Shown: positions 24,281 to 43,519, counted from the first letter of the stretch. The stretch: 64,000 nucleotides of DNA from Actinomycetota bacterium (GCA_003598015.1 QZKE01000033.1:124616-188615), one strand, 5' to 3'. Program-made: numbers and translations. The notes: generated by a model not told the origin, from the sequence alone.

Positions 24281-24322
24281 GATTCTCATCCTCTTTCCCG
24301 TTCTCTCCCGCGTTTCAGCCCA

Positions 24323-24757
24323 TCAGTCCATCTCGTCCTGCACCAGCTCGAGCAGGTCCTTGAAACGGATGGCGTCGCTGATGATCCCGTCCACCTCGAG
24401 GTCGCCGCACATGTAAGCCGCGGTGGGATCCACGCTGCCGCTGAAGACGCCCAGGGCCACCTCTTCATCCATGTTCAATATTATGTCCGGATTGGGAAGG
24501 GAACCCGATCCCGCCTCGAACCTGCATTCGCGCACGGACAACCAGCAGAGCGGTTTGCCCTCCACGTTGATCTGGAAACTGCGGTCGAAGCCCTCCACCT
24601 CGTCCTGGACGTCTTCGGCGTTGTTGGCGATCTGGGTGAAAACGGTGAAGTAGTCCTTGATGTCAGCCATGCAGAGGGTGTTTTCCTCCATCTTCTGCAG
24701 CACCTGGTCCCGCAAGACCTCGTCTATCTGCTGCCCGCTTTCCGCTTTCCAATCCAT
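24323..24757 (-). CDS. SCP2 domain-containing protein
   Basis: ATG 24757 with AGGAGG 6-7 nt upstream; C-terminal SCP2 signature (AAYMCGDLEVDGIISDAIRFKDLL). Confidence 0.6.
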   Translation of the reverse strand: MDWKAESGQQIDEVLRDQVLQKMEENTLCMADIKDYFTVFTQIANNAEDVQDEVEGFDRSFQINVEGKPLCWLSVRECRFEAGSGSLPNPDIILNMDEEVALGVFSGSVDPTAAYMCGDLEVDGIISDAIRFKDLLELVQDEMD

Positions 24758-27768: not shown

Positions 27769-28953
27769 ATGGAATCCATGCACTACGACCTTGTGGTGGT
27801 GGGGGGAGGCCCGGCAGGAGCGGCTGCGGCCAGGGCGGCAGTCGAAGGCGGGATGAGCACCTTACTCATCGAGAAGAAGAAGATGCCCCGGCCCAAGCAG
27901 TGTTCGGGCATGATCATGCCGGCTGCCCGGCGCTACTTGCAGGAATATTTCGGGCCCCTGCCGGAGAAGGTACTGGCGAGTCCGCCCTTCAAGGGCTCGA
28001 GCTGGCATCTCAAGGGAGACAGGACCATCAACGTACATCTGGACGGAGATAACGTATGGCGGGACAGGTTCGACCAGTGGTTGTGCGAGGAATCCGGGGC
28101 GGAAATACGTGATGGGACGAGGCTCGTGGATTTCGCGGCATGGAAGGACCATGTTGAAATCATCTGCCTCCGCAATGGCGAGGAAGTGAGGCTGCGTTCC
28201 TCGGCCATGGTAGCGGCGGACGGGGTCTATTCCGGGGTCGTAAAGAAAATAGATCCAACCTTCAATGATGGCCTGGACTGCTTCTATTACCGGCAGGACT
28301 ATTACCGCTGCGATGTGGAACTGGAGCCGGGTTATTTCCATGTTTTCCTGGATCCAAGGTTCGGGCTCTACCCCGCCGCCTATGTCAAGGACGACATTCT
28401 GGTGGTGGACAGTTGCGTACGTGCGGGAGAGAAGATCGCGCCGGCCCATGATCGCTATTGCTCATCTTTGAGCGAGAAGCACGGTTTCAAGTGTCACGAG
28501 CTGGTCATGACCTTGGGCTGCAGGGAGACCGGTACACCTGGATTCAACCGCTTCTGCCTGGGCACGGACCGCGTCCTTGTGGCGGGAGAGGCGGCCGGCT
28601 TCATAAACGGTTACGGCGAGGGCATCTCGTCGGCGTTAGCCACGGGTTATCTGGCGGGGAAAGCGGTGGTGGAATCCGGGAGCTCCTCTCCCGGGCCCGT
28701 GTATCGAGAAAGCGTTGCGCCTGAGAGGGAGCGTACCATGAAAGAATGGCACCTGCCGGACGTCATATCGGGACGCTCCAATCCGGATGTAACCCGGGCC
28801 ATTATGGCCTTGCCTCCCAAGGACATACTGCGGCTGATGCCGAAGATATTCGCCTTCGGCATCAAGCATAAAGCTTTCCCCGGGTTTCACAGGGGCAACT
28901 TGGAGCTCTCCCTGAGAAGGCTGCTGCACGGCGATTTTAACTTCCGAGGTTGA
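27769..28953 (+). CDS. FAD-dependent oxidoreductase (geranylgeranyl-reductase-like family)
   Basis: N-terminal DLVVVGGGPAGAAAARAA Rossmann FAD motif; GDAAG-like VAGEAAGF near C-terminus. Confidence 0.75.
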   Translation: MESMHYDLVVVGGGPAGAAAARAAVEGGMSTLLIEKKKMPRPKQCSGMIMPAARRYLQEYFGPLPEKVLASPPFKGSSWHLKGDRTINVHLDGDNVWRDRFDQWLCEESGAEIRDGTRLVDFAAWKDHVEIICLRNGEEVRLRSSAMVAADGVYSGVVKKIDPTFNDGLDCFYYRQDYYRCDVELEPGYFHVFLDPRFGLYPAAYVKDDILVVDSCVRAGEKIAPAHDRYCSSLSEKHGFKCHELVMTLGCRETGTPGFNRFCLGTDRVLVAGEAAGFINGYGEGISSALATGYLAGKAVVESGSSSPGPVYRESVAPERERTMKEWHLPDVISGRSNPDVTRAIMALPPKDILRLMPKIFAFGIKHKAFPGFHRGNLELSLRRLLHGDFNFRG

Positions 28954-29103
28954 TTGATAAGCATTTCAGGTTCTTCTCCGAAAAGCTTGGGTGAACAGTA
29001 TGGTGGAATCAGGGTCAGGCCAGGCCTAACGGCAGCTACTCACACTTCTCAGGGAAGAACTACATCATACCCTGGGGAGTCGTGCGAGAAATGGAGGATG
29101 ATC

Positions 29104-31170
29104 ATGATGGGAGGAAACTGGGGCAGGATTCTCGAGGTCGATCTCACGCAAAGGTCCGTGCGGGACCTGGAGCCGGATGAGCAACTGTATCGCGATTACC
29201 TGGGGGGCAGCGGCCTGGCCGCCAGGCTGTTCTTCGACCGCCGTGGTTGGGAGGCTGATCCCTTATCCCCCGAGAACCCGCTGCTGATCATGCTGGGGCC
29301 GCTCTCGGGGTTGAACCTTCCGGGGGTGTCCAGGCTGGAGATCTGCGCCCGCTCCCCCCTCACCGGCATCTGGGGGGAATCCTGCATGGGAGGCCACTTC
29401 GCCCCTCAATTGAAGCGCACCGGCTACGACGGTATCATCGTGACCGGGGCATCGGACAAGCCGGTCTACCTCTGGGTGACGGACGAGGGGGCCGAGATCC
29501 GCGACGCCTCCCACCTCTGGGGCAGGGACACCTACGAGACGGAGGATATCCTCAAGACGGAGGCGGGAGACAAGCGAGCCCAGGTGATGTGCATCGGCCT
29601 GGCCGGGGAGAACCTGGTGAAGTACGCCAACGTGATGAACGACAGGGGCTCCACAGCCGGGCGCTGCGGCATGGGGGCGGTGATGGGCTCCAAGAAGCTC
29701 AAGGCGGTGGTGGCCCGGGGCGGCAGGAAACCTCCCATCGCCGACGAGGATGGGTATAAGAAAATCCGCGAGCGGCTGGGCGAGGTATTGAAGTTCAGCA
29801 TGGTGGCCGAGTCCTTCGGCGCCTACGGGACCAACGTGGGCATGGAGTTCGGCATGGCCATGGGAGACGTACCCACCAAGAACTGGCGGGAGGCCTACTG
29901 GGAGGCCGGCCGGGAGAAGCTGGGCGGAGTGGCGGTGGCGGAGACCATCCTTACCAGGACCCACTCCTGCTACGGATGTCCCGTGGGATGCAAACGTATC
30001 GTAGAGGTGGATTCCGGCCCCTACGCCCTGGAGGAAGGTCCGGGAAGCGAGTACGAGACAGCCGCGGCCCTGGGCACCTTGCAGCGCCTGGACAGCGTGG
30101 AGGCCAATCACAAGGCCAACGAGATGTGCAACCGCTACGGCATGGACACCATCTCCGCCGGGGGGAGCATCGCCTACGCAATCGAGGCCTTCGAGGAAGG
30201 CTTGATCGTGGAGGCCGACACCGGCGGCATCAAGCTGGGCTGGAACCAGCCCGAGACCCTGCTCCTGCTCATCGACAAGATCGCCCAGAGGGAGGGTTTC
30301 GGGGATGAGCTGGCCGAGGGGGTACGGTCCATGTCCGGGAAATACGGCGGGGAGGAATTCGCCATCCACGTCAAGGGGCTGGAATGTCCCATGCACGATC
30401 CCCGGGCGATGTGGGGCCTGGCCCTTACCTATGCCACGTCGGTGAGGGGAGCGTGCCACGTCTCCGACGCGAATCTTTTCGCTGATTATGGCATAACCGA
30501 CCACAGGGACCTGGGGGCGAAGAGGTCCTGGCCGTACAGGGCCAAGGGCAAGGCGGCCCAGACGGTGGCATCGCAGGAGAAAGGATCCGTGGCCAACTCG
30601 GCGATCATCTGCCTGATCGCCTGGGCTTCGGAAGGCGGCGCCATGCGGGATATGATGGAGATGCTCAACCCCGTCACCGGCTTCGCCTACGATGTGGATG
30701 AACTGGCTCGGGTGGGGGACCGCATATGGTTTATCAAGCGCGCTATCGGCAACCTCTGCGGGGCTACACGCCAGGATGACCGGCTGCCCGCGCGCATCAT
30801 AGAGCCGCATGTTGAGGGGACCACCTCGTATCTCACCATGGCGGCATTCCCGACCATGATGTCCATGCTGCCCATGGGCAAGCTGCGGGTGGATAAGCTG
30901 AGGGATGTCCTGGCCAACTTCCAGATGAAGGTCCTGGTGCCCAACATGAACAAGCTGCTCAGATCCCAGCGCAATCTTCCCGGTTTCAGGGGCCACATGA
31001 AAAGGCTGGAGGCGGGAGAGGCGGAGGAGATAAAGCGCAGGACAGTCCCCTTCGACGATATGCTCCAGGAGTATTATCGCTTGCGTGATATAGACGGCCG
31101 GGGGCGCCCCAGCCGCAAGGTCCTCGAGAGCCTGGGGATGGGGGAGGTGGCCAAGGAGCTGCACGGCTGA
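29104..31170 (+). CDS. Aldehyde:ferredoxin oxidoreductase (tungsten-containing AOR family)
   Basis: AOR N-terminal domain (GNWGRILEVDL...GGSGLAARL) and AOR C-terminal domains with Cys ligands; GGAGG 6 nt before ATG 29104. Confidence 0.85.
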   Translation: MMGGNWGRILEVDLTQRSVRDLEPDEQLYRDYLGGSGLAARLFFDRRGWEADPLSPENPLLIMLGPLSGLNLPGVSRLEICARSPLTGIWGESCMGGHFAPQLKRTGYDGIIVTGASDKPVYLWVTDEGAEIRDASHLWGRDTYETEDILKTEAGDKRAQVMCIGLAGENLVKYANVMNDRGSTAGRCGMGAVMGSKKLKAVVARGGRKPPIADEDGYKKIRERLGEVLKFSMVAESFGAYGTNVGMEFGMAMGDVPTKNWREAYWEAGREKLGGVAVAETILTRTHSCYGCPVGCKRIVEVDSGPYALEEGPGSEYETAAALGTLQRLDSVEANHKANEMCNRYGMDTISAGGSIAYAIEAFEEGLIVEADTGGIKLGWNQPETLLLLIDKIAQREGFGDELAEGVRSMSGKYGGEEFAIHVKGLECPMHDPRAMWGLALTYATSVRGACHVSDANLFADYGITDHRDLGAKRSWPYRAKGKAAQTVASQEKGSVANSAIICLIAWASEGGAMRDMMEMLNPVTGFAYDVDELARVGDRIWFIKRAIGNLCGATRQDDRLPARIIEPHVEGTTSYLTMAAFPTMMSMLPMGKLRVDKLRDVLANFQMKVLVPNMNKLLRSQRNLPGFRGHMKRLEAGEAEEIKRRTVPFDDMLQEYYRLRDIDGRGRPSRKVLESLGMGEVAKELHG

Positions 31171-31285: not shown

Positions 31286-32593
31286 TCAACCCAAAGCGTC
31301 CGCGAGAAAACTCAGCATTTTCGCCCAGGAGTCCGAGCTGGCGCGCGCGTTCGCCCCGGGGCTGCCGCCGAAGTCCAGGGCCATGCCGGAGAAGACGCGG
31401 GTGTAGCCCACCGTCGCCGGCTGATAGGGCATGAAGACGACGTGGCCTGCGCCGTCGTAGTCCAGGTGCTCGCAGGGGTAGGGGTGGTTGTTCTTCTCCA
31501 GGCGCCCGAGGGCGATGCGTGACAGCTCGGAGGACGGCCATACCCTGTCCCCCTTGCCGGACACCAGCAGCACCGGCCCCTTTATCTTCTCCACCTCTAT
31601 GGTGGCCTTATCCACCGACCCCTCGTCCTTCATACCCTCGATATAGGTGGACAGGGTGGAGAGGGGCTTTCCTGACATGCCGCTCCAGATGGCCTTCGCC
31701 GTGAACGCGAAGCTGTCCTTGCGCTTCGCGAAGGGCACCGCCTCCCCCCGCCAGGTCCAGGGCGTATCCGCTTCCGCTTCCCGGGGGTTCTTGTGCAGCC
31801 CCTCGAAGACCACTCCCCCTCCGGAGATGGAGACCACCGCGCTCACCTGCTCCAGTTTGGAGGCGACCAGGAGGGCGCCCTCGCCGCCCCGCGACACCCC
31901 GATGAGGGCGACGCCGTCCTCTCTCACTTCCAGCCTCGCGGACAGCCAGGCGATGCATTTCTCGAAGTATTCCACGGGGATTCTTATGTAGTCTTCCGGC
32001 TGTCCAGCGCCGCCGAAGTAGAGCAGGGAGAGCACGGCGTAGCCCCGCGAGGCCAGGAGGGACCCCCTGTCCTCCATGATGCGGTTGGAGGTGCCGTGCA
32101 TGACGATGATTCCGGGACGCGGACCGGCGGCAACGGGCTTGAAGTAGGTGCCCGTGATGCCGCCCTCGGAGACGGGGATGCGCTCCACTCCCGGCGCCAG
32201 GTACAGCCTCTCGATCTCCCTGGTGGCTGCGGCAGCCCCATCCACTTGCGCGGTGAAGGTCATCTTCTTGGGTTCGGTGTTCTCCTTCACGTATATGCCC
32301 GCGCTCTTGTCCAGCGGGGACATGGACCAGAAGAGGCCCATGGGATCGGCATCCTTGTAGGTTCCCGCGGCGGGCTTGTGCCGGGACAGGTCCGCCATGC
32401 CGTCCTCATCGCAGGTAAAGACGGCATGGGATTCCCACCTCTTCCCGGCGTCGTCATCGAGCGACGCGCCGAGGTTCACCCGCTGGTGAGGCTCGAAGCC
32501 GGCAAGCCTTATCTCCAGCGCTTCGTCGGCCAGCGAACTCTCGGGCGCTATCTCTATGCGCGGTCCTTGGGGAGCCCCTTCATCCCTTGCCAT
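31286..32593 (-). CDS. Acyl-CoA thioesterase / BAAT-family hydrolase (N-terminal thioesterase-like beta domain + C-terminal alpha/beta hydrolase)
   Basis: GVSRGG nucleophile elbow, C-terminal YDGAGH; ATG 32593 with GGGAGGTG RBS. Confidence 0.6.
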   Translation of the reverse strand: MARDEGAPQGPRIEIAPESSLADEALEIRLAGFEPHQRVNLGASLDDDAGKRWESHAVFTCDEDGMADLSRHKPAAGTYKDADPMGLFWSMSPLDKSAGIYVKENTEPKKMTFTAQVDGAAAATREIERLYLAPGVERIPVSEGGITGTYFKPVAAGPRPGIIVMHGTSNRIMEDRGSLLASRGYAVLSLLYFGGAGQPEDYIRIPVEYFEKCIAWLSARLEVREDGVALIGVSRGGEGALLVASKLEQVSAVVSISGGGVVFEGLHKNPREAEADTPWTWRGEAVPFAKRKDSFAFTAKAIWSGMSGKPLSTLSTYIEGMKDEGSVDKATIEVEKIKGPVLLVSGKGDRVWPSSELSRIALGRLEKNNHPYPCEHLDYDGAGHVVFMPYQPATVGYTRVFSGMALDFGGSPGANARASSDSWAKMLSFLADALG

Positions 32594-32935
32594 TTTGGCA
32601 CCTCCCGGTGGTAATGCACGGTTCCGCCCGTGCCGAGAGACGTTGAAAACGCACTTGACCATAGCATAACGCATGTTCGCATCCGAGTGGTGGAGAATGG
32701 CCGGCATTTTATGGTGCTGCATTACCTTCCAATCCCCTCTCGTCCCCCCGTGGTGTTTGCGTCCCGCATTCCTGCCACTCCTTCCCGTTCAAGCCGGGAA
32801 GGGTCCGGAAAATACCATCCACCTCACCGCGGGCGACCTTGGTTTGCATGCCGGCGATATACTGGCAGGGGCTCCGATGCAATAATAGAGGCATGCCGTT
32901 ACCATTGCAGGCTCTCAGGTGAGGAGGGAGGGGGC

Positions 32936-35599
32936 ATGGGCAGGTCATTCCTGATGGCGTTCGACCTCGGCGGCGGCTCCGGCAGGTGCATACTGGTCGA
33001 CCTGGAAACGGGAGCCGCCTTTTCAACCAAGAGGGACTGGTCGTATCCCGTAGCGCCCGGTACCGCGGGCCTGGGTTACGACCTGGATCTCGAGGACATG
33101 TGGCGCAAGCTGGGAGAAGCCTGCCGCCAGGTGGTGGAGGAAGCGGGAGCCGGGCCCGGGGAAATACTGGGCGTAGCCGCCACCAGCATGCGCAACACCA
33201 CGGTATTGCTGGACGGCGAAGACAGGGTGCTCTTCGCCACCCCCAACCAGGACGGGCGTGCCCTGGGCAACGCGCTGATGCTGGCGGGCGAGCGCGGCAT
33301 GGAGTTCTATCGGGCGGGCGGCCACTGGCCGGGCCCCATTTTCACCGGCCCGAGGCTGCTGTGGATGCAGAACAACGCGCCGGAACTCCTCGCACGGGCC
33401 ACGCGCGTCACCTGCCTCTCCGACTGGATGGGGTTCCGCCTGAGCGGGGGTCTCTATTCCGAGAGGTCGCAGGCGGGCGAGACCATCCTCTTCGACCACC
33501 GCAAACGCGACTGGGCCCGGGACCTCATCGCGTCCATCGGAGTGGATCCGGGGATGTTCCCCGAGGTGGTGGGTGCGGGGACCCTTATCGGAAGCCTCAC
33601 GCGCGAGGCGGCGGAGCACCTGGGCCTGGCGCCCGGCATCCCGGTTGCGGCGGGCGGCGCCGACACCCAGTGCGGCCTGCTGGGGGCGGGATGCGTGCGG
33701 GACGGGGATCTCGGCGTCATCGCCGGAACCTCCATGTCCGTGCAGCAGGTCTGCGGGGACTACGTGCTGGACGGGGAGGGCCGGCTGTGGAGCGGGCAGC
33801 ACGTGGTGCCCGGACTGTACGTGCTGGAGAGCAACGGCCTGCTCTCGGGCACGGTCCTGGAATGGTTCTCGCGCATCCTCCATCCGGGCAGCTACGACCC
33901 GCTCGCGGTCCTCTTCGCCGCGGCGGCACGTTCCGAGCCCGGCGCGGCGGGGGTGTATTCGACCTTCGGGGCCCATGTAGGGGACGCCCGCAGCATCAGC
34001 GTCATCCTCGGCAGCCTCACCATGTCCCACATGGTGACCCCCGACACCCTCGCCTGCCGCGATCACATCGGCCGGGCCCTGCTGGAGGGCATCGCCTATT
34101 CCGCCTGGGCCAACGCCGGACAGGTCATCGCGGTGAGCGGCATGGACCCGGACTTCCTTGACGCGGGAGCGGGCATGTCCAGGAGCGCACTGTGGACCCA
34201 GATAGTCAGCGACGTGGCGGGGAAGACGGTAAGGGTGCATGCGGTGGCGGAGAACTCGGCGCTGGGCGCGGCCATCTGCGCCGGCGTGGGGGCCGGCGTC
34301 TTCCCCGACCTGGTGGAGGGCGCCAGCCGCCTGGTGAGCGTGGAGAGGGAACAGCGGCCGGGGGAGCATGCCCAGAAATACGGGGAGCTGTACGCGGGCT
34401 GGAGGGAGGCCATGGACAAAGGCTCCGAGTGTGAAAGCTGCATGGCGAACCAGATGGCCGTGGCCATGCTCTCCCGCGCGCCGGCGGCCTGCGAGGCACC
34501 ACCCGCCTTCCGGCCCCGCATACTGGTCACCGCGAGCATGGACGATGCGGCCCTGGGCGAGCTGCGCGGCATGGGCGAAGTGGACTTCCGCCCCTGGCGC
34601 GAGGAGATGAGCGTCCTGGGGGGCGGGCGGGAGCTGGCGCAGGCGCTGGCGGGCTTCGACGTCTTCATCACCGAGATGGACGTGGTGGACTTCGAGGCCC
34701 TGCGCGATACGCCGGGCCTGAAGATGATCATCTGCTGCCGCGTCAACGCCGTCAACGTCGACCTGGAGGCGGCCACCGCCTTCGGCGTACCCGTGGCCAA
34801 CACCCCCGGCAGGAACTCAGGCGCGGTGGCGGACCTCGCCGTGGGCTTCATGATCATGCTGGCGCGCAAGCTGCCCGGGGCGGCCACGTTCCTCAAGCAA
34901 AGCGGCGGCGAGGCCGGCGACCTCCTGCGCATGGCGCAGGCCTACGAGGAATACCAGGGCAGCGAGCTCTGGCGCAAGACGGTAGGCCTGGTGGGCCTGG
35001 GCAACGTGGGAACGCGGGTCGCCGCCAGGCTGTGCCCCTTCGGCGCGAAGGTCATCTTCTACGATCCCGGAATAGACGCCGCGGAAGGGGTACTGGCGGG
35101 GGCCGAGAAGGTGTCCTTCGAGGAGTTGCTGAGGCGCAGCGACTTCGTGAGCGTGCATGCCCCGGCCACCGCGGCCAGCGAAAAGCTCATGGACCGTGAG
35201 GCCTTCTCGCGCATGAAGGAGGGGGCGTTCTTCATCAACACGGCGCGGGCCTCCCTCGTCGATGACGAGGCCCTGGCGGAGGCGCTGGAGAGCGGGAAGC
35301 TCGCCGGGGCCGCACTGGACGTTTTCACGGTGGAGCCCCCCGCGGCGGATAACCGGTTGGCGGGGAGGGAAGACGTCATCGCCACCCCGCATATAGGGGG
35401 CAACACGCGGGAGATCGGCGCCCACCAGGGGGATATCGCCGCGGACCAGCTGCGCAAACTGCTGCGCGGAGCGTCACCCGACCACATCCTCAACCCGGGG
35501 GTACTGGAGGGGTTCGCCTGGGAGGGGCCCCGCCGCGAACCACCTCCCGAGGTGCTCGAGTCACTCGCCCGCAACCCGAAGCCGTCCATCACCTCTTAG
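32936..35599 (+). CDS. Fusion protein: FGGY-family carbohydrate kinase (N-terminal about 500 aa) + D-isomer-specific 2-hydroxyacid dehydrogenase (C-terminal about 330 aa)
   Basis: Single frame without stop; FGGY motifs (MAFDLGGGSGRC, AGGADTQCG, GTSM); 2-HADH NAD-binding GLVGLGNVGTRVA and catalytic HIGGNT; ATG 32936 with GAGGAGGGAGGGGG RBS. Confidence 0.7.
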   Translation: MGRSFLMAFDLGGGSGRCILVDLETGAAFSTKRDWSYPVAPGTAGLGYDLDLEDMWRKLGEACRQVVEEAGAGPGEILGVAATSMRNTTVLLDGEDRVLFATPNQDGRALGNALMLAGERGMEFYRAGGHWPGPIFTGPRLLWMQNNAPELLARATRVTCLSDWMGFRLSGGLYSERSQAGETILFDHRKRDWARDLIASIGVDPGMFPEVVGAGTLIGSLTREAAEHLGLAPGIPVAAGGADTQCGLLGAGCVRDGDLGVIAGTSMSVQQVCGDYVLDGEGRLWSGQHVVPGLYVLESNGLLSGTVLEWFSRILHPGSYDPLAVLFAAAARSEPGAAGVYSTFGAHVGDARSISVILGSLTMSHMVTPDTLACRDHIGRALLEGIAYSAWANAGQVIAVSGMDPDFLDAGAGMSRSALWTQIVSDVAGKTVRVHAVAENSALGAAICAGVGAGVFPDLVEGASRLVSVEREQRPGEHAQKYGELYAGWREAMDKGSECESCMANQMAVAMLSRAPAACEAPPAFRPRILVTASMDDAALGELRGMGEVDFRPWREEMSVLGGGRELAQALAGFDVFITEMDVVDFEALRDTPGLKMIICCRVNAVNVDLEAATAFGVPVANTPGRNSGAVADLAVGFMIMLARKLPGAATFLKQSGGEAGDLLRMAQAYEEYQGSELWRKTVGLVGLGNVGTRVAARLCPFGAKVIFYDPGIDAAEGVLAGAEKVSFEELLRRSDFVSVHAPATAASEKLMDREAFSRMKEGAFFINTARASLVDDEALAEALESGKLAGAALDVFTVEPPAADNRLAGREDVIATPHIGGNTREIGAHQGDIAADQLRKLLRGASPDHILNPGVLEGFAWEGPRREPPPEVLESLARNPKPSITS

Positions 35600-35959: not shown

Positions 35960-36148
35960 TTATCAATGAGAGCCTTCACTTCCTGAGGGCTGACGTAAGG
36001 GGGGTAGAACGTACCCGACTCCGATCAATTGCCCCAGGCGTAATGGTAAGAATGAGCCTGGGGTCAGAATGTGAGGATCTACTGGCTAAATGACCGGAGA
36101 TCACACCGGACAGGGCTACGCCCTGGCTGCGTTATTCTCAATCTTCGT

Positions 36149-36799
36149 CTAAGTGCCTTCGTAACCTTTCTCGTAGTCCTTATTGTAACCGTCATAGAAA
36201 CCGCGTTCATACTCTGGGGGGCCGCCGCCGGTCCAAAGGCCGGGTGTGGGGCTGAACCCAAATCCGAAATCCTTGTCCGCTTCGCCGTGCCTTAAGCCCA
36301 TCTCATATCCATCTTCGTAGCCAGCATCGTAGTCCAGGATTCTATCTGACTCCACGGTCTCTTTATCATCACTGGAGGCCTCCTCCCCAGAGGCCTCTTC
36401 CTCGGAGGCAGCTAACTGCAGCTCTTCCTCCTTTATGCGAATGCAATCTTCGTAAGCGTCAAAATATCCATCCAGATTACCAACCCGGAATCCCTCGTCA
36501 TACTTTGCATTGCCGGTCTTGACGCCCATGGAAGAAGGGGTGAAGTCTTCTCCCCTCGCGTAGTCCCCCGTCCCTTCGGAATACCCGTTCTTATAGCCGA
36601 GATCGTATCCTTTGCGATACTCCTCACTTGTGGATTTGTTGCGGTTGGCTGGATCGCCGACACCCTGTTTCTTCAGCAAGTCCATGTACGCCTTGTTCCT
36701 CTCCGCCAAGCTCTTGCCGTTGCAGCCGCAAGAGAGGATAAGGGACAGGCTGAGTAAAGATATGATCAGCAACAGACCCCTGGTGGTGGCCTTCTGTAT
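36149..36799 (-). CDS. Predicted lipoprotein with Gly/Tyr/Asp-rich repeats (GYDLGYKNGY, DGYFDAYED, GYEDGYEMG)
   Basis: Signal peptide ending in lipobox-like LILSC|GC; low-GC gene. Confidence 0.5.
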   Translation of the reverse strand: MQKATTRGLLLIISLLSLSLILSCGCNGKSLAERNKAYMDLLKKQGVGDPANRNKSTSEEYRKGYDLGYKNGYSEGTGDYARGEDFTPSSMGVKTGNAKYDEGFRVGNLDGYFDAYEDCIRIKEEELQLAASEEEASGEEASSDDKETVESDRILDYDAGYEDGYEMGLRHGEADKDFGFGFSPTPGLWTGGGPPEYERGFYDGYNKDYEKGYEGT

Positions 36800-36971
36800 C
36801 ATCACAACCACCTGTTTTGGATTTGCCGCCCTATTGCTTTGATTATATACAGTGAGGGAATCCTATGCCTAGCATGTAGGATACGTATACAGTGCCATCT
36901 TTGCGGCTCTCTTTGAATCTGAGTCCTGCTAGGGTACATCTATATCCAGGATCACACGGGAAGGGCGTAAG

Positions 36972-37038
36972 TTGACGTTAGAATCGATATGTTCTATAGT
37001 TAACTGATATATATACTATATTGTTAGTTTACAATAGG
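36972..37038 (+). promoter_or_regulatory. Promoter for arsR-nifS-dsrE operon (TTGACG 36972-77, 17-nt spacer, TATAGT 36995-37000) followed by TATTGT-N6-ACAATA inverted repeat (putative ArsR operator)
   Basis: Read from sequence immediately 5' of ATG 37050. Confidence 0.4.
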
Positions 37039-37049
37039 TTCAGGTAGAG

Positions 37050-37370
37050 ATGAACGAGATATTCGAACTCCACGCGGACATATGCAAGACTTTTGCGAAC
37101 TCCAAGAGGCTTGAAATCATCGATGCATTGAGGGATCAAGAGATGACAGCAAGCCAGTTGCTCATGCGAATCGACACCAGTAAGGCAAACCTCTCACAAC
37201 ATATGAAAGTACTTGTGGAAAAAGGGGTAGTGGATTCGAGGAAAGACGGAGTGAAAGTTTACTACCGCCTGAGCGACGAGAGGATAACCAAAGCGTGCGA
37301 CCTGATGCGCGAGGTGTTGATAAAAAGGTTGGAGCTGAACAACGAGATCCTACAGAATCTGAGAAAGTAA
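37050..37370 (+). CDS. ArsR/SmtB family transcriptional regulator
   Basis: 106 aa; wHTH ICKTFANSKRLEIIDAL...MTASQLLMRIDTSKANLSQHMKVLVEKGVV. Confidence 0.8.
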   Translation: MNEIFELHADICKTFANSKRLEIIDALRDQEMTASQLLMRIDTSKANLSQHMKVLVEKGVVDSRKDGVKVYYRLSDERITKACDLMREVLIKRLELNNEILQNLRK

Positions 37371-37371
37371 A

Positions 37372-38580
37372 ATGAACCAGCGTAGCGTATCAGCGGGAAA
37401 CACGGAAGCCGGAAAACCGGTCTATCTGGATTATAATGCAACCACGCCAACCGATCCCGATGTTGCTGAGGCGATGCGGCCTTATCTTGCGGAGTATTTC
37501 GGAAATCCGTCCAGTTCCTATTCGTATGGCATTCAAACAAAGGACGCCATTGAGAACGCGCGCGCGCAAGTCGCGGCGCTTCTAGAATGCCAACCCCATG
37601 AGGTGGTCTTCACCAGCGGGGGGACAGAATCCAATAATTTCGCGATAAAAGGAACGGCCTTCGCCAATCGCGATAGGGGCAACCATGTCGTAACAGCACA
37701 GATCGAGCACCCGGCAGTCACGCAGGTATGCGAGTACCTCGAGCGGCAGGGTTTCGATATCACTTATCTGCAGGTCGACGAATTCGGCCTCATCAGCGTT
37801 TCGGATGTCGAAAAGGCCATTAGCGGTAGAACTACGCTTATAACCATCATGCACGCCAACAACGAGGTTGGGACCATTCAACCCATCGAACAGATTTCCA
37901 GGCTGGCTTCCGAAAAGGGGGTCACCTTCCATACCGATGCTGCTCAATCCGCCGGGAAGATCCCCGTAAGCGTCGGTGATCTTGGGGTTGACCTCCTTTC
38001 CCTGGCCGGGCACAAAATATATGCTCCAAAGGGTATTGGTGCATTGTACATCCGACAAGGCCTGAGGCTCGAGAAATTCATGCACGGAGCCGGCCAGGAG
38101 CGAGGAATGAGGGCTGGAACCGAGAACATCCTGGGGATTGTAGGCCTTGGGAAAGCCTGCGAGATCGCGAAGCGGGACCTAAGCCGTAACGCGTCCCGGA
38201 TGAGAGACATGCGTGACGCATTATATAAAGGATTGTTTGAAAGCCTGGAAAACGTGCGGCTGAACGGGCACCCGGAGAGGCGTCTCCCCAATACGTTGAG
38301 CTTCAGCATTCAGGGTGTTCAGTCGGACGTTCTCCTCGGCAAGATCAAGGGACGTTTGGCTGCTTCCGCAGGTGCGGCCTGCCACTCCGGCGAAGTCGAC
38401 ATATCCCACGTCCTACGGGCGATGAAAGTGCCGGAGGATTGGGCGAGAGGGACAATCCGTTTGTCCACCGGCAAGATGACGACCGAATCCGATATCGAAA
38501 CGGCGATAAGGATTATCGCGGATGCGGTGAGCAGTCTCAGGGACACAGCGGATGGTTCTTCTATGAAGAGGAGGTTATGA
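37372..38580 (+). CDS. nifS: Cysteine desulfurase (NifS/IscS-type, class V aminotransferase)
   Basis: YLDYNATTP, GGTESNN, PLP-Lys motif SLAGHKIYAPKGIG, active-site SAGAACHSG. Confidence 0.9.
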   Translation: MNQRSVSAGNTEAGKPVYLDYNATTPTDPDVAEAMRPYLAEYFGNPSSSYSYGIQTKDAIENARAQVAALLECQPHEVVFTSGGTESNNFAIKGTAFANRDRGNHVVTAQIEHPAVTQVCEYLERQGFDITYLQVDEFGLISVSDVEKAISGRTTLITIMHANNEVGTIQPIEQISRLASEKGVTFHTDAAQSAGKIPVSVGDLGVDLLSLAGHKIYAPKGIGALYIRQGLRLEKFMHGAGQERGMRAGTENILGIVGLGKACEIAKRDLSRNASRMRDMRDALYKGLFESLENVRLNGHPERRLPNTLSFSIQGVQSDVLLGKIKGRLAASAGAACHSGEVDISHVLRAMKVPEDWARGTIRLSTGKMTTESDIETAIRIIADAVSSLRDTADGSSMKRRL

Positions 38581-38900
38581 TGAAACTCGGCATGATCATC
38601 AGCCAGACCGATGCGGAGACCGTCTTCAACGCCTTGCGCCTGGCCCTCTACAGCCTGGAACAGGGCGACGAGGTGCGCATTTTCCTTTCGGGAAGAGGCG
38701 TTGAGATAGACAGCATAGAGGATCCCAAGTTCGATGTGAAGGCCCAGGCACAGCTGGTCCTGGATGCGGGCGGACAATTCCTCGCATGTGGCGCATGCCT
38801 GAGGCTTCGCAACTCCGAGGGGTCTGAGATATGCCCCCTCTCAACTCTAATGGATCAATACGATATCGTACGCGAATCCGACAGGGTCGTGACGTTCTGA
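38580..38900 (+). CDS. DsrE/DsrF-like sulfur-relay family protein
   Basis: ATG 38580 with GAGGAGG 7 nt upstream, overlapping nifS stop; about 107 aa with conserved Cys (ACGACL). Confidence 0.6.
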   Translation: MKLGMIISQTDAETVFNALRLALYSLEQGDEVRIFLSGRGVEIDSIEDPKFDVKAQAQLVLDAGGQFLACGACLRLRNSEGSEICPLSTLMDQYDIVRESDRVVTF

Positions 38901-39003
38901 CACTTATTCAGTAGAGTGGGCGGAAACGGAGGCAGACCGTTACCCGATCGGCAAGTCATTTGGTTGACCTTGATTTGTGTAGGAATATTCTGGTAAGCGC
39001 ATC

Positions 39004-39040
39004 TGCCTCGAAAGGCGTTTCGCTTTGCCGCGGGCTTTGC
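39004..39040. repeat. Left copy of imperfect direct repeat TGCCTCGAAAGGC...GGGCTTTGC flanking the HepT/MntA + TIR-gene islet
   Basis: Matches 43592-43616 (TGCCTCGAAAGGCaccGGGCTTTGC); left copy has a 12-nt internal insertion. Confidence 0.45.
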
Positions 39041-39209
39041 GGAATCGCATCCCTCCCCTCCGTCAACATCTATCTTGAGCTGGGAATCTGCGTGAAAAAT
39101 CTAGACCGCTTGTTTATGCCATCGAATTGCGAATTCCCCGGCTGTGCCCAAAACGTGCCCGATTTACGAGGAGGCCAGAGTGCAGATATGATGGAGAAGG
39201 CAGCGCAGG

Positions 39210-39557
39210 TCATACTTCTTTCTCTATTACGTATGCGATGAGCGGCTTAAGTCTCGGGATGTCCTCCATCACGGTGTTCCATACCACCCTTGAATTCACC
39301 CCGAAATATTCATGGATCAGCTTATCACGGATTCCAGCCATCTCCTTCCAGGGGACCTCTGGATAGGAATCCCTTGTCTCTGGAGGGATTTTCTTCGAAG
39401 CCTCGCCGACGATCTCCAGGGCCCTGACCACGGCGTACGAGGTCTTCTTGTCCTTTGTGAATGCTTCGTAATCAAGGCCTTGCGTAAAATCCACGATGTC
39501 CAGGATAGCCCTTTGGATGTCTTGAAGGTAGTCCTTATGATCTCTTTCGGCAATCAT
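39210..39557 (-). CDS. hepT: HepT-like HEPN toxin (DUF86 family) of type VII TA system
   Basis: R-x4-HxY motif (RDKLIHEY); 115 aa; 4-nt overlap with upstream mntA. Confidence 0.85.
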   Translation of the reverse strand: MIAERDHKDYLQDIQRAILDIVDFTQGLDYEAFTKDKKTSYAVVRALEIVGEASKKIPPETRDSYPEVPWKEMAGIRDKLIHEYFGVNSRVVWNTVMEDIPRLKPLIAYVIEKEV

Positions 39558-39895
39558 AGCGAAACGGCTTCCTTGAGGATTCTTTCACCTATTGCCGGCT
39601 TCAATGCATCCTTCATCACCAGGTCTACCTTGATTCCCAGAAGGTCGGATAGGTGATTCTCGAGTGCGATGAAAGCAAGCAAAGAGGGGGTTTTTACAAA
39701 CTCTACTAAGAGATCAAGATCGTTTGCCGACTCTCTCCCGCCCCGCAGAAAGGACCCGAAGACCTGAATGTTGCCTACGTGGTAGTCACATTTCAATCGC
39801 GGGAGGTTCTGGCGCAAGGCAGATATTATCTCCTGGGTATCTCCAGGAAGATCCTTATAACCATGTGGGCTCTTACCCTTGGAGTCCGTAGCCAT
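39554..39895 (-). CDS. mntA: MntA-like nucleotidyltransferase antitoxin
   Basis: GSxxRG...DxD motif (FGSFLRGGRESANDLDLLV); 113 aa. Confidence 0.85.
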   Translation of the reverse strand: MATDSKGKSPHGYKDLPGDTQEIISALRQNLPRLKCDYHVGNIQVFGSFLRGGRESANDLDLLVEFVKTPSLLAFIALENHLSDLLGIKVDLVMKDALKPAIGERILKEAVSL

Positions 39896-40208
39896 ACCCT
39901 TTCCACCACCTCAAATCGGCCTGTTCTGTAAACATTCTACAATGCCAAGAAGACCTTGACACTATAAAAACATTACATGGGGCTAAACAGCACAGCCCAT
40001 GCCGGTCGTGAGGGTGCTGTCGTGATCCGTAATGTGTGGGACTACCCAGATATGATACCCCTACCCGAGGTGCTATCATGGTTGTAGTGCTGTGGTTCGG
40101 GGCCAAAGGGTTCCAACTATTTAAGGGTTACGCGCAGGGCAGTTCCCTTGCATGCGTGACCACCATCAAGAGGGCCTGCACCACTGGATCTATCCAGGTG
40201 AGGTGCAC

Positions 40209-43200
40209 ATGGGAAATATCTTCATCAGCCACGTCATTGCGGACGAGCTCCTCATGCGCGAAATAGCGCAGGGGCTCGAGGAGGCGGGCTATGCCGCCTG
40301 GTTCTTCGAGAGGGGCGTCCTCCCCGGAACCTCCTATCTCATCCAGATCACCCGGGCGATAGAGGCCTGCGACGCCCTGGTACTGCTGGTCACCCCCGCA
40401 GCCCTCGAATCCGACCAGGTGACCAAGGGGGTGGTGGGGGCCTTCGAGCGCAGGATACCTTTCATACCGGTACTGGTGGGTGTGATCCCTGACGAGCTCA
40501 AGGAATGCCAGCCGGAGTGGCGGCACGCCCTGGGGGGAACGGCCATGCTCTGCTGCGGGGAGGGGGGCCTCTCACCCACCATACCGCGCATCATAGATGG
40601 AATCCGGGCGCTGGGCATAGAACCCAAGGAAAGGGAGTTCTCTACAACTACCCCTGCTTCCTCCGCACCAGCAGATGTCTCCGAGCACATTCTCTCCTAC
40701 CGCTCATCCCTGGAGGGGGAGCGCAAGCAGGTGACGGTGCTCTGCGCCGGCGCATCCCTTCCTCCCGCCCTCTCCGAGAAGCTCGACCCCGAGGAGGTAC
40801 ACGACCTCCTGAGGCCGGCTATAGACATCATGGCTGAGGAGGTCCACAGATACGAGGGCACCGTGGCCCAGCTCGCAGGCGACGGCCTCACCGCCGTCTT
40901 CGGAGCCCCCCTGGCTCACGAGGACGACCACCAGCGGGCCCTGTACGCGGCACTGGCCATCAGGAAGCGCCTGGGCGGATACGAGGAGAGACTCAAAGCC
41001 AAGGGGATGGAACTTGCCCTGCGCGCGGGGGCCAACACCGGCCTCATCAAGGTGGAGGCCGTAGGGGAGGACCTCTCCATGTCCTATACCCCCCTGGGCA
41101 TGGGCAAGTCCCGCCTGCTGCTCGAGTTCAGGAAAACCCTCCCCGAGGACGAATACACCTACCTGGAGGGGGGGTGAATCCACTACGGGGAGGCCATCGC
41201 CTACCTCCCCATCCTGGACATCCTGCGGGACTACTTCGATATCGCTGAGGGAGAGGATGAGAAGAGCAGCAGACGCAAAGTGGAGGAAAGGCTGGCTCCC
41301 CTGGACGGCCAGCTCTCCCATATCCTCCCGCCCCTCGAGGAGCTGCTCTCCCTTCCCATGGACGACGAGTCCTATCTCTCCCTGGAGCCCGCGCAGAGGA
41401 GGAAGAGAACCTTCGAGGCCATCCGCTGTCTGCTCATAGCCGAATCCCACAAGAGGCCTCTGGTGGTCTCGGTGGAGGACCTGCACTGGATGGACAGGAC
41501 GAGCGAGGACTTTATCTCCTATTTCGTGGAGAGCATGCCCGCTGCCTCCATCCTCCTGCTCCTGCTCTACCACCCGGAATACAGCCCTGCCTGGGCAAGC
41601 AAGACCTATTACCGGCAGATCCTCGTGGATCACCTGCAGGAGAGGCCGAGCATGGAACTGGTGCAGGCCATCCTCTCTGATGGTGAGGTCTCCCCCGAGC
41701 TCTCCGCTTTTATCACCGAAAGAGCCGCTGGGAACCCACTCCTTATCGAGGAGCTCACCCGCTCCCTGCTGGAGTCGGGCTCCATCACGGCAGAGGACGG
41801 GCGCTACACCCTCGCGGCCGAGCCCTCTGAGATCAAGGTGCCGGATAGCATGCAGGGCATCGTCGCCTCCCGCCTGGACCATCTGCCTGAGGAGGAGAAG
41901 GAGGTTCTGCAGCTCGCCTCGGTCATCGGGAGGGAGTTCTCACTGCGCCTGCTGGAGGAGGTCACCGGCCTGGGTAAGGTGCTCAAGTCCACACTCCACG
42001 CCCTGCAGTCCCTGGAGCTCATCTACGAGAAGGGCCTCTTCCCTGAGCCGGAGTACATCTTCAAGCATGCCCTCACCCAGGAGGTGGCCTACGAGAGTAT
42101 CCCCTCAAGAGAAGGAAGAGACTGCACGAGAAGATCGGCCAGGCAATTGAGCGGCTCTACCCGGAACGCCTGGAGGAATTCTACGAGACCCTGGCCCACC
42201 ACTACTCCAGGAGCGAGAACGCGGAAAAAGCCGTGCACTACCTCCGGCTCTCCGGAGACAGAGCGACACGCGACTACGCCAACTGGGAGGCCATACGCTT
42301 CTACCAGGAGGCTATACATATACTCGATTCCCAACCGCAGAGCGAGGAGACAAAACGGGCCAAGTTGGATATCTTCATCTCCATCCTGGACCCCGCCTTC
42401 TTCCTGGGCTTTCCCGAGGGCAGCAGCGAGTTCCTGGCAGAAGCGGAGAGGCTCGCCTGGGAACTTGGTGACGATGGCAGCCTTGTCGCCGTTTACAGCA
42501 GGTTCTCCCTCTACCACACCATGAGGGGAGACATATCCCTGGGTGTGGAATACTCCTGGAAATGCTTCGACGCAGCGGAGAAGGCCGGGGACGTTAGATC
42601 TATGTCCCTAGCCGCTTTCGACATCTGCAGCTCCCTGTTCTTCTCGGGAGATTTTTTAGAAGTCGTCATGATTGGCCGCAAGGTCATCGAGGCCCTGGAG
42701 GAGAAGCACCTGGAAAAAGAGCTCAAAGTAGGGCCGTGGACCGTATACAGCGATCAGTGCGCGTGGTGCGGAGAAGCCCTGGGGATGATGGGGGAATTCG
42801 AGGAGGCAAAGACGGTGCTGAAGAAGGGGATCGAGCATGCCCTGGGGATCGGTGAAGTCTTCGGGATCGGATATATCGGCCAAGCTCACTGCGTCGTTTC
42901 GTTCCCGGAAGGGGACGCGGATGGCCTTGCCTATCACGCGAGCAGGTCCATCGAGCGCTTCGAGGAGACGGGGGTAAAGTTCCTCCTGGGAATTTCGATG
43001 GCTTGGTCGGGGCTGGGCTATTTGCTCCTCGGCGATTATGAAACTGCAAGGGAGGATATCGAGAAGGGCAGCGAGAGCAATAGAGAGTTTGGCTTACCAA
43101 TCATGCTGTCGTTTTTTTCATGGGCGCTGTCCCTGGTTGATCTCGGAGCAGGGGCACCCGGCAAAGCAAAAGCGCATGCGGAGGAGGCCTTGAGGCTGGC

Positions 43201-43519
43201 GCGTGTGCACGGGGCGGTGTTATATGAGGCATTGGCCCTAGTGGCCCTGGGAAGGGCGGAGGGAGAAGAGTCCCCCTCTCGTTTGCGGGAAGCATCAGAG
43301 CATATCCGTTGCGGTATTTCCATGGCCGAGGAGATGTTGTCGAAGCCAATCTCACAGCTGGGCTATATTTTTCTTGGCGAGGTCTTCGAGCTAGCCGGCC
43401 GAAGGGAAGAAGCTGTGGAGGAACTTCGTAAGGCAGAGGCGATGATGGAGGAGCTGCGGGTGATTCCCGACTCCTACTGGCTCACCCGCACCCGGGAAGC
43501 TCTGGCGCGTCTCGGTTAG
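40209..43519 (+). pseudogene. Disrupted TIR domain - class III adenylate/guanylate cyclase (partial) - AAA_16/STAND ATPase - TPR protein (in-frame TGA at 41175-41177; -1 frameshift in C4 run 42101-42104)
   Basis: TIR: MGNIFISH...DALVLLV...PVLV. Cyclase N-half: ERKQVTVLCAGA...GDGLTAVFGAP..HEDD. Walker A: GMGKSRL. The same frame continues after TGA (...LEGG*IHYGEAIAYLPILDIL...). The downstream frame resumes ...PLKRRKRLHEKIGQAIERLYPERLEEFYETLAHHY then TPR repeats to 43519. Confidence 0.6.

Follow-up and report, generated by a model that had tools for sequence, protein, structure and literature searches.

The window analysed here is a stretch of 64,000 nucleotides from an Actinomycetota bacterium (GCA_003598015.1, QZKE01000033.1:124616-188615), with positions counted from its first letter. 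On its plus strand lies a gene (32936-35599) in which an FGGY carbohydrate kinase and a D-isomer-specific 2-hydroxyacid dehydrogenase (2-HADH) are joined in a single polypeptide. The gene almost certainly encodes a genuine bifunctional enzyme and, judged by conserved residues, both halves are catalytically intact. It is made up of the following parts.

32936-35599, plus strand: complete coding sequence of the 887-residue kinase-dehydrogenase fusion, 887 codons, ATG start and TAG stop
32921-32934, plus strand: Shine-Dalgarno-like purine run GAGGAGGGAGGGGG, read directly from the sequence, just 5' of the ATG
32936-34426, plus strand: kinase half of the FGGY carbohydrate type, residues 1-497, related to the LsrK/XylB clade (Pfam, NCBIfam, PDB, Foldseek)
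34427-34510, plus strand: interdomain linker, residues 498-525 (low model confidence, tiny indels, split point of one relative)
34511-35506, plus strand: 2-HADH half, residues 526-857, with substrate- and NAD-binding domains (Pfam, NCBIfam, PDB)
35507-35596, plus strand: conserved C-terminal tail ending in KPSITS (homologue alignment)

The open reading frame (ORF) listing of the window gives an open frame from 32630 to 35599 on the plus strand, and the N-termini of 40 aligned homologues coincide with the methionine at 32936. An earlier note on this stretch had described an uninterrupted frame of 887 codons that encodes an FGGY kinase, a linker and a complete 2-HADH domain in one polypeptide. 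Frame and Pfam matches bear this out and show the kinase to be complete as well, and the four peptide strings quoted there are all present in the translation of 32936-35599. The G+C content of the region is 68-72%, a composition in which long spurious ORFs are common. Despite this, the domain matches of the fusion frame are near full-length and above the gathering scores, and cannot be due to chance. The G+C content at third codon positions is even (0.86-0.90) in the kinase, linker and dehydrogenase parts alike. A scan of the gene's surroundings for promoters and terminators found no more than is expected from shuffled sequence.

The same note had named an assembly error hiding a stop codon at the junction as the circumstance that would reduce the fusion to two genes. 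Such an artefact, two separate genes joined by an error of assembly or sequencing, is so improbable that we regard it as ruled out. Positions 34427-34510 contain neither a stop nor a change of frame, third-position composition is uniform across the linker, and linker length is conserved, with indels of only 1-4 residues among the 40 homologues. An identical protein (100%) is recorded in the protein collection (P0001; 3 member sequences, 2 contigs, the longest a 194-kb JGI contig). More than 100 independent clusters of about 888 residues and 54-84% identity, from varied samples and assemblers (JGI, NCBI, ENA and Logan assemblies), retain the open frame and the kinase-dehydrogenase architecture; the mean column identity in the 40-member alignment of fusions is 70%. 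In favour of the artefact stands one relative, locus L089, which has an in-frame TAG in the linker, so that separate polypeptides do occur in nature. There a kinase (515 residues, 58% identical) and a dehydrogenase (365 residues, 62% identical) are encoded separately in the same frame. The break may reflect a true gene split or a nonsense mutation, or else an error of sequencing or a site of read-through.

In the AlphaFold model of the fusion (mean predicted local distance difference test, pLDDT, 83.5; predicted template modelling score 0.66) residues 513-519 are the sole low-confidence stretch of the linker. The break in L089 (2140-2185, a TAG and five codons) falls at residues 514-523 of the window protein and coincides with this stretch, which suggests that the linker is a true domain boundary and that the halves are able to work as separate proteins; in the window and nearly all relatives they are joined in one polypeptide. 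The model contains no confident interdomain contact and no sign of a shared active-site tunnel, and a Foldseek search of the PDB found no solved chain spanning both halves.

The kinase half contains the following two motifs.

33188-33202, plus strand: MRNTT substrate-pocket motif with invariant Arg86 (homologue alignment, cross-architecture comparison)
33653-33670, plus strand: GGADTQ motif; Asp243, Thr244 and Gln245 invariant in 40 fusions and across architectures

Both Pfam domains of the FGGY family are present at full length, FGGY_N (PF00370) at residues 7-250 (E 1e-36, 126.8 bits against a cutoff of 28.8, profile positions 3-245 of 245) and FGGY_C (PF02782) at residues 262-452 (E 4e-12, 47.0 bits against a cutoff of 27, profile positions 4-197 of 198); by the NCBIfam models the kinase fold reaches to about residue 497. 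The catalytic Asp motif and the DxGxxxxR motif, on which family membership also depends, are kept. In the FGGY family the Asp of the GGADTQ motif is the catalytic base, and the N-terminal phosphate-binding motif DLGGGSGR (residues 10-17; G14-R17) is invariant or nearly so in the 40 homologues and in all architectures, where further pocket residues are invariant too. MRNTT we take to be equivalent to Arg83-Glu84 of GlpK. The kinase half is predicted to be an ATP-dependent FGGY kinase of a sister clade to LsrK and xylulokinase (XylB).

The best PDB match of this half is E. coli LsrK (5ya0, 227 bits), compared to 118 bits for XylB, and Foldseek aligns it to LsrK with 32% identity and a TM score of 0.87. 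LsrK (PDB 5YA0-5YA2) has the two-domain FGGY fold and the catalytic Asp motif in common with the window protein but carries no dehydrogenase, and the window protein differs further by Asn at pocket residue 87 and by a context without an lsr operon. A true LsrK can be ruled out, since the NCBIfam LsrK equivalog (NF008187) is reached with only 282.5 bits against a curated cutoff of 528 and lsr genes are lacking from the gene context. No Lsr ABC transporter, LsrF, LsrG or LsrR was found in the Pfam-annotated contexts of the window and nine related loci, and no lsr-type gene occurs among the annotated clusters of recurrent neighbours. An ABC transporter near the Actinomycetota fusion genes, considered as an Lsr-like importer, turned out to be of the ABC-2 export type and to be accompanied by a TetR regulator. 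Among 1.84 billion representatives, which were searched exhaustively, there are 1,047 relatives at E<=1e-30. About 110 library representatives score between the window protein and the level at which LsrK matches, and the names of the closest unfused kinases are uninformative.

The dehydrogenase half combines common and family-specific elements.

34670-34681, plus strand: invariant TEMD motif (T579-E580-M-D582) in place of the phosphate-binding (V/L)RS(A/V)T of phosphoglycerate dehydrogenase (PGDH), from alignment to 1ygy
34733-34762, plus strand: CCRVNAVNVD substrate loop with invariant Arg602 replacing the canonical Gly of GxGxDN(I/V)D (alignments)
34802-34816, plus strand: TPGRN loop with invariant Arg626 (alignments, comparison with 1ygy)
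34898-34951, plus strand: family-specific region with a 10-residue insertion where PGDH has its Trp-x-Arg135' dimer-interface loop (alignment gap)
34994-35011, plus strand: Rossmann GxGxxG motif (G687-L-G689-N-V-G692), invariant in the alignments
35060-35068, plus strand: YDP motif with invariant Asp710 (alignments)
35237-35401, plus strand: catalytic triad region with Arg771 (NTAR), Glu800 (VEPP) and His819 (TPHIGG), invariant in all architectures

The domain 2-Hacid_dh (PF00389; residues 548-853, 53.4 bits) encloses 2-Hacid_dh_C (PF02826; residues 637-821, 179.8 bits, E 4e-53), and the NCBIfam glyoxylate reductase model spans residues 526-857. These nested domains, both above threshold, together with the catalytic triad, the Rossmann motif and the acidic NAD-selecting residue place this half in the 2-HADH family. 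Arg771, Glu800 and His819 align with the catalytic residues of PGDH. In 2-HADHs an acidic residue after the Rossmann motif is an indicator of NAD, and Asp710 points to NAD rather than NADP as cofactor. The half is accordingly described here as a predicted NAD-dependent D-2-hydroxyacid/2-oxoacid dehydrogenase.

Its best PDB matches are the PGDH of M. tuberculosis (1YGY, 167 bits) and human PHGDH, followed by McyI and glyoxylate reductases. Fold, Rossmann motif and Arg-Glu-His triad are common to the dehydrogenase half and SerA/PHGDH (PDB 1YGY, 2G76, 6PLF), but the fusion lacks the Arg-Ser motif, the Arg135' loop and the ASB/ACT domains, and gains Arg602, Arg626 and the 10-residue insertion. In human PHGDH, the distal anion or phosphate is held by Arg54, Ser55 and Arg135' from the partner subunit (PMC8081924). 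The position of Arg54-Ser55 is occupied by T579-E580 throughout the fusion family. In the AlphaFold model residues 659-672, within the region of the insertion, have low pLDDT. No ACT match was obtained, and the protein ends 30 residues past the catalytic domain. The PGDH model (TIGR01327) gives 217.8 bits against a cutoff of 454, and the PdxB score likewise stays far under its curated cutoff. By these cutoffs and the loss of the phosphate-binding motif, a true PGDH or PdxB-type enzyme is ruled out.

The signature TEMD / CR(G/V)N(A/P)VN(V/I)D / PGRN is invariant in the window protein, in two- and four-domain relatives including those of Mycobacterium, and in the split dehydrogenase of L089; the CCRVNAVNVD stretch was also picked as a family-specific pattern by the genome scan. 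Since the active-site residues of the dehydrogenase are identical in all architectures, one dehydrogenase substrate is probably common to the whole kinase-dehydrogenase family. The fusion is an uncharacterised enzyme built from known families and belongs to neither the LsrK nor the SerA equivalogs. Members are annotated at their source as "AI-2 kinase", "phosphoglycerate dehydrogenase-like enzyme" or "NAD(P)-dependent oxidoreductase", names that are probably misleading.

Among 185,579 species genomes (one genome per species) 175 stretches encode a relative, corresponding to about 0.1% of species; they are spread over at least six phyla. Together with the clusters described above, these stretches answer the search for the same layout that had been proposed earlier, and the suspicion that the architecture is not a common one was justified. 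No paper describing an FGGY/2-HADH fusion was found in the searchable literature. The same literature held nothing relevant on a fusion of FGGY kinase, SCP2 and aldolase, nor did a search on 2-HADH classification.

The family is modular. We found the kinase alone, kinase-aldolase, kinase-dehydrogenase, kinase-dehydrogenase-SCP2, kinase-dehydrogenase-SCP2-aldolase and kinase-dehydrogenase-SCP2-SCP2-aldolase, of which the kinase-dehydrogenase fusion is predominant. Four-domain proteins of about 1,320 residues, in the order kinase, dehydrogenase, SCP2 and class II aldolase, are among the top protein matches. In these relatives the tail motif of the window protein (GPAVSDL) runs into a Pro/Ala-rich linker followed by the SCP2, a putative lipid-binding domain, and the aldolase. 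Mycobacterium ostraviense, M. innocens, M. attenuatum and M. persicum (L051, L062, L066 and L082), which are cultured members of the M. kansasii complex, have a four-domain form of about 1,285 residues. Proteins of about 1,475-1,480 residues (L052, L053, L054, L067, L070 and P0128) carry SCP2 twice in tandem between dehydrogenase and aldolase, and P0123 (746 residues) is a kinase-aldolase fusion without dehydrogenase. Pocket position 87 of the kinase tracks these architectures: it is Asn in the two-domain form and His when an aldolase domain is present, in four-domain as in kinase-aldolase proteins. Kinases without fusion partner have Glu or Leu there, for example Glu in the more distant P0138. 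The matching pocket residue of LsrK is, we assume, Glu as well.

Two further observations concern the family members themselves. In P0160 (996 residues) the kinase is C-terminal (residues 494-989) and follows about 490 residues without a Pfam match. One Actinomycetota contig (CAYWXM010000024.1) carries two paralogous two-domain genes (L008 and L009) about 41 kb apart, both 69-70% identical to the window protein, with an aldehyde:ferredoxin oxidoreductase (AOR) gene near only one of them.

The aldolase-family partner was searched for in the complete ORF sets of 84 loci, using profiles made from the C-terminal domains of fused proteins. A stand-alone class II aldolase-family gene (PF00596) lies directly 3' of the kinase-dehydrogenase gene in at least 21 loci of Syntrophales, Smithella and related organisms. 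Its product has about 228 residues, and it starts 6-135 bp downstream in at least 19 loci and 168 and 244 bp downstream in two with truncated ORF calls. The aldolase is fused in about 30 loci from Anaerolineae, Myxococcota and the four Mycobacterium species. Fused or adjacent, it was found in about 50 of the roughly 72 related loci that could be assessed. The partner is about 45% identical to a solved L-fuculose-1-phosphate aldolase (FucA) and retains the Zn-binding His triad and the catalytic Glu (FucA Glu73); the position of FucA Tyr113 is Glu or Asp. It scores below every curated cutoff for FucA (165 bits against 264), AraD and OtnC. Kinase-aldolase fusions without dehydrogenase and the fused or adjacent aldolase in most lineages suggest that this third activity belongs to the pathway. 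The family can thus be described as kinase, dehydrogenase and FucA-like class II aldolase-family activities, fused or side by side, to which SCP2 is added in some lineages.

To find recurrent neighbours, the neighbouring ORFs of all 84 loci were clustered. In the window, the following genes precede the fusion.

27769-28953, plus strand: FAD-dependent oxidoreductase immediately 5' of the AOR gene (neighbourhood annotation), a possible operon partner whose link to the fusion is uncertain
29098-31170, plus strand: tungsten-type AOR (Pfam AFOR_N and AFOR_C; PDB 1aor, 391 bits)
31286-32593, minus strand: BAAT/dienelactone-hydrolase-like alpha/beta hydrolase, divergent from the fusion gene (Pfam; synteny with L006)

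AOR is the commonest neighbour (14 of 84 loci). In the window and its nearest relatives (L005, L006, L008 and L013) it is encoded upstream of the fusion, and three operons of Anaerolineae have it at a distance of 25-30 bp. In the four Mycobacterium species, which are aerobic, an aldehyde dehydrogenase (ALDH)-family gene follows directly 3' of the fusion. The hydrolase gene between AOR and fusion is shared by the window and L006. A HAD hydrolase gene lies directly upstream of the fusion in eight Syntrophales loci. The richest context is a same-strand Anaerolineae operon (L061, 1353-12884) with a GntR/UTRA regulator, the four-domain fusion, AOR, an MFS transporter, a PigE-like class III aminotransferase, an M28/M20 hydrolase and a short-chain dehydrogenase/reductase (SDR); similar sets occur in L048, L052, L060 and L083. 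The SDR of the Anaerolineae operon passes the cutoff of the HpnA "hopanoid-associated sugar epimerase" model (440 against 368 bits). HpnA-like SDRs are also found in the Mycobacterium four-domain loci, together with a WS/DGAT acyltransferase and an acyl-CoA synthetase.

Some genes in the surroundings deserve mention in their own right. A few kb 3' of the fusion, GlpA-like (DAO and BFD [2Fe-2S]) and GlpB-like FAD oxidoreductase genes occur in L009 (19363-22211), L011 and L021, which may indicate a link to glycerol-phosphate/dihydroxyacetone phosphate (DHAP) metabolism or a coincidence. In the window, a 761-residue Gfo/Idh/MocA oxidoreductase fused to a creatinase/peptidase M24 domain is encoded at 22004-24289 (minus strand), and directly upstream of it a stand-alone SCP2 protein of 144 residues (24323-24757, minus strand) that weakly resembles the SCP2 of the four-domain relatives (E 1e-3 by tblastn, 2e-4 by profile). 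From about 36000 to 40000 the G+C content drops to 0.50-0.53 compared to 0.62-0.72 on either side. Possibly this segment is an acquired island that begins directly behind the fusion gene; it encodes an ArsR-type regulator, a cysteine desulfurase, DsrE and a HepT/MNT toxin-antitoxin pair. The HepT/MNT nucleotidyltransferase (39210-39895, minus strand) matches the PADLOC candidate system PDC-S09 (E 7e-25). A TIR_2-domain protein with weak PADLOC matches (40152-41177) is followed by a 414-residue ORF without family and a TPR protein (40152-43519 in total, plus strand). Both parts could form a small defence locus.

From the modular architecture we infer that kinase and dehydrogenase serve a single short pathway and have a common small substrate, a sugar-like hydroxy- or oxo-acid or ketose, and in the same way the logic of the pathway, its step order and the class of substrate are deduced. 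That the fusion works in a module with kinase, dehydrogenase and aldolase-family activities is, in our judgement, quite likely. In the scheme that we prefer, the dehydrogenase would interconvert a 2-oxo acid and a D-2-hydroxy acid by redox chemistry at C2, the kinase would then phosphorylate the terminal hydroxyl group, and the aldolase-family enzyme would, by cleavage or decarboxylation, turn the phosphorylated compound into a triose or pentulose phosphate. The acid could be supplied by an aldehyde-oxidising enzyme (AOR here, an ALDH-family enzyme in Mycobacterium) and a lactonase-like hydrolase. The order dehydrogenase, kinase, aldolase is preferred because it would be the sole linear one in which both the kinase-dehydrogenase and the kinase-aldolase fusions join consecutive steps; this specific order is nevertheless somewhat doubtful. 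A sugar-acid-like substrate is plausible. The Arg-Glu-His machinery that binds the 2-oxo-carboxylate is intact and accompanied by two new invariant arginines (Arg602 and Arg626), genes for aldehyde oxidation are neighbours of the fusion in three lineages (the Actinomycetota subclade, Anaerolineae and Mycobacterium), and the dienelactone-hydrolase-like gene stands between AOR and fusion in the window and L006. The best explanation as a whole, preferred order included, is a tentative one.

The same three kinds of chemistry are applied to a small acid sugar in the routes for tetronates (LtnD/DenD-OtnI-OtnK-OtnC) and for 2,3-diketo-L-gulonate (YiaK-LyxK-SgbH/U/E), both of which combine redox at C2 and terminal phosphorylation with a reaction of a class II aldolase-family enzyme; of their enzymes, LyxK belongs to the FGGY kinases and OtnC to PF00596. 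The resemblance is by analogy alone, as the dehydrogenases of both routes and the Otn kinase belong to other protein families than the fusion halves, and the similarity of the partner to OtnC amounts to 95-114 bits against a cutoff of 250. With FucK-FucA and AraB-AraD the family shares the genetic coupling, adjacent or fused, of an FGGY kinase to a PF00596 enzyme. It differs by a 2-HADH as core partner, by the loss of FucA Tyr113 and by the absence of a nearby aldolase in the window's clade.

Several findings weigh against this scheme. A tblastn search detected no aldolase-family gene in the 64-kb window, and none lies within 10 kb in about 14 loci of the window's Actinomycetota (Geothermincolia-like) clade, so that for the window protein the three-activity module would be an extrapolation from relatives that are 47-58% identical. 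The partner is nearer to the FucA aldolase (165 bits) than to the OtnC decarboxylase (95 bits), which fits a ketose-1-phosphate aldolase route at least as well. Neither an OtnI-type isomerase, needed by the tetronate analogy, nor an SgbH-type decarboxylase was found. Upstream HAD phosphatase genes and the fusion to a kinase could mean that the dehydrogenase acts on a phosphate ester. Compared between phyla, the AORs beside the fusion share no more than 28-44% identity and represent different AOR lineages. This rules out AOR as a co-inherited dedicated partner and suggests that the link was recruited independently, or is partly synteny among close relatives; inside the window's subclade it would be mere synteny, leaving about three independent associations for the aldehyde link. 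Beyond the aldolase-family gene, HAD, AOR/ALDH and, in Anaerolineae, the GntR-MFS-aminotransferase-M28-HpnA set, gene context is poorly conserved between lineages, and no single conserved operon able to reveal the substrate was found among contexts that vary by lineage. The searchable literature contained no biochemical data for any family member.

A route modelled on FucK and FucA, with the dehydrogenase last, is unlikely. Here the kinase would make a ketose-1-phosphate, the aldolase would release DHAP and a 2-hydroxyaldehyde, AOR or ALDH would oxidise the aldehyde to a D-2-hydroxyacid and the dehydrogenase would convert this to the 2-oxoacid, so that the fused activities would be the first and the last steps. 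If the aldehyde part were anionic, for example the sulfonate of a sulfo-sugar giving sulfolactate, an isostere of 3-phosphoglycerate, the remodelled anion site would be explained. The direct kinase-aldolase fusion, a partner about 45% identical to FucA with Glu and His triad kept, and AOR or ALDH genes adjoining the fusion fit this route, as do the NTPG...DAVADL motif that resembles glyoxylate/hydroxypyruvate reductases, a 2-oxoacid:ferredoxin oxidoreductase near the kinase-aldolase fusion and GPH/MFS_2-type transporters at L061, L089 and L090. However, the predominant fusion is that of kinase and dehydrogenase and not of kinase and aldolase, FucA Tyr113 is replaced by Glu or Asp, the aldolase is missing from the window and from 10 kb around its clade's genes, and the kinase is closest to LsrK and XylB. 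These two enzymes phosphorylate the hydroxyl group distal to the carbonyl. For the sulfo-sugar variant, no support for sulfoglycolysis with FGGY and 2-HADH enzymes was found in the searchable literature, and no sulfoquinovosidase or sulfoquinovose isomerase was noticed among the annotated neighbours. The scheme of the earlier note, in which phosphorylation precedes oxidation and may be channelled, is rather improbable. Worked out further here, the kinase would phosphorylate the terminal hydroxyl group of a D-2-hydroxy acid sugar (of the glycerate, erythronate or threonate type) and a PGDH/PdxB-like half would oxidise the phospho-hydroxyacid to the 2-oxo acid. A transaminase, a HAD phosphatase or both may act later, as they do when serine or 4-hydroxythreonine is made. 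PGDHs are indeed the best overall matches of the dehydrogenase, fused enzymes usually act in consecutive steps, HAD hydrolases lie immediately upstream in eight loci, a class III aminotransferase is part of the Anaerolineae operon, and Arg602 and Arg626 could build an alternative phosphate site. Yet the Arg-Ser phosphate site, which E. coli SerA and PdxB also carry, has become the invariant acidic TEMD and the Arg135' loop an insertion, and scores are far under the curated PGDH and PdxB cutoffs. In addition, kinase-aldolase fusions indicate that the kinase product can go straight to an aldolase-family enzyme, and the structural model gives no sign of a shared tunnel. The idea of channelled phosphorylation and oxidation is only partly supported; its premise that the kinase product is the dehydrogenase substrate finds no support in the remodelled phosphate site and the kinase-aldolase fusions.

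More distant substrates have to be considered as well. The SCP2 domains (one or two) of the SCP2-bearing forms, the HpnA-family SDR, AOR/ALDH, the PigE-like aminotransferase and the acyl-CoA genes would be in line with the processing of a lipid-tethered or anionic polyol by an undescribed, phylogenetically widespread pathway with this family as its core, which we consider distinctly improbable. Candidates would be the bacteriohopanepolyol side chain, a different lipid of the long-chain polyol or aminopolyol type, or a deoxy-sugar carrying a sulfonate; in the last case the sulfolactate product would mimic 3-phosphoglycerate, and the two-domain enzyme of the window would be the version for a soluble substrate. 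Many of the same neighbours (an HpnA-family SDR above cutoff, acyl-CoA synthetase, WS/DGAT and PigE-like aminotransferase) could also speak for a triose module in which kinase and dehydrogenase turn glycerol or dihydroxyacetone into DHAP via glycerol phosphate and the aldolase of the four-domain form catalyses an aldol condensation or cleavage that involves DHAP and a lipid aldehyde bound to SCP2. Its domain order would match the reaction order, the dehydrogenase site is invariant while kinase pocket and accessory domains vary, and GlpA/B-like genes lie near four Actinomycetota loci. But activity of a 2-HADH on glycerol phosphate is not known to us, Arg771, which binds the carboxylate, is kept, the kinase is much nearer to LsrK than to GlpK, and the window protein has neither SCP2 nor aldolase domain, so that this reading has very little probability. 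Just as little is left for the quenching or salvage of a diketone similar to autoinducer-2 (AI-2). In that case the kinase would phosphorylate 4,5-dihydroxy-2,3-pentanedione or a similar 2,3-diketone, the dehydrogenase would reduce one keto group of an alpha-diketone mimicking an alpha-keto acid, and the aldolase partner would cleave or epimerise the resulting deoxy-pentulose phosphate. LsrK is by far the closest characterised kinase (227 against 118 bits for XylB; TM 0.87), and compact units without regulator, consisting of kinase-dehydrogenase and aldolase with or without HAD, would suit the salvage of an endogenous or community metabolite. The LsrK equivalog is, however, missed by a wide margin (282 against 528 bits), about 110 library representatives come between the window protein and LsrK, lsr-type genes are absent from the annotated contexts, and to our knowledge no 2-HADH reduces a diketone without carboxylate.

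In M. tuberculosis, three consecutive genes are annotated as "possible L-fuculose-phosphate aldolase" (Rv0727c), "possible D-3-phosphoglycerate dehydrogenase" (Rv0728c) and "putative D-xylulose kinase" (Rv0729) (PMC12101465, PMC11126594, PMC4895118). By annotation and consecutive numbering only, this trio (fucA-serA2-xylB) would be an unfused counterpart of the family, and species of the M. kansasii complex have the four-domain fusion instead.

If confirmed, the fusion would represent a new multifunctional enzyme family in which two well-known superfamilies are combined and the substrate site of the dehydrogenase is remodelled. It would also point to a short pathway for carbohydrates or acid sugars that is named in no current database. 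The natural fusions (kinase-dehydrogenase, kinase-aldolase, kinase-dehydrogenase-SCP2-aldolase and the split kinase and dehydrogenase) map which activities belong together and make the family a good target for the discovery of function. Its hosts are abundant anaerobes of sediments and digesters (Syntrophales/Smithella, Anaerolineae and Geothermincolia-type Actinomycetota), and an extended form occurs in Mycobacterium species of the M. kansasii complex, which are cultured and tractable, so that function can be studied there. The family may also help to understand the genes fucA-serA2-xylB of M. tuberculosis, which are unexplained.

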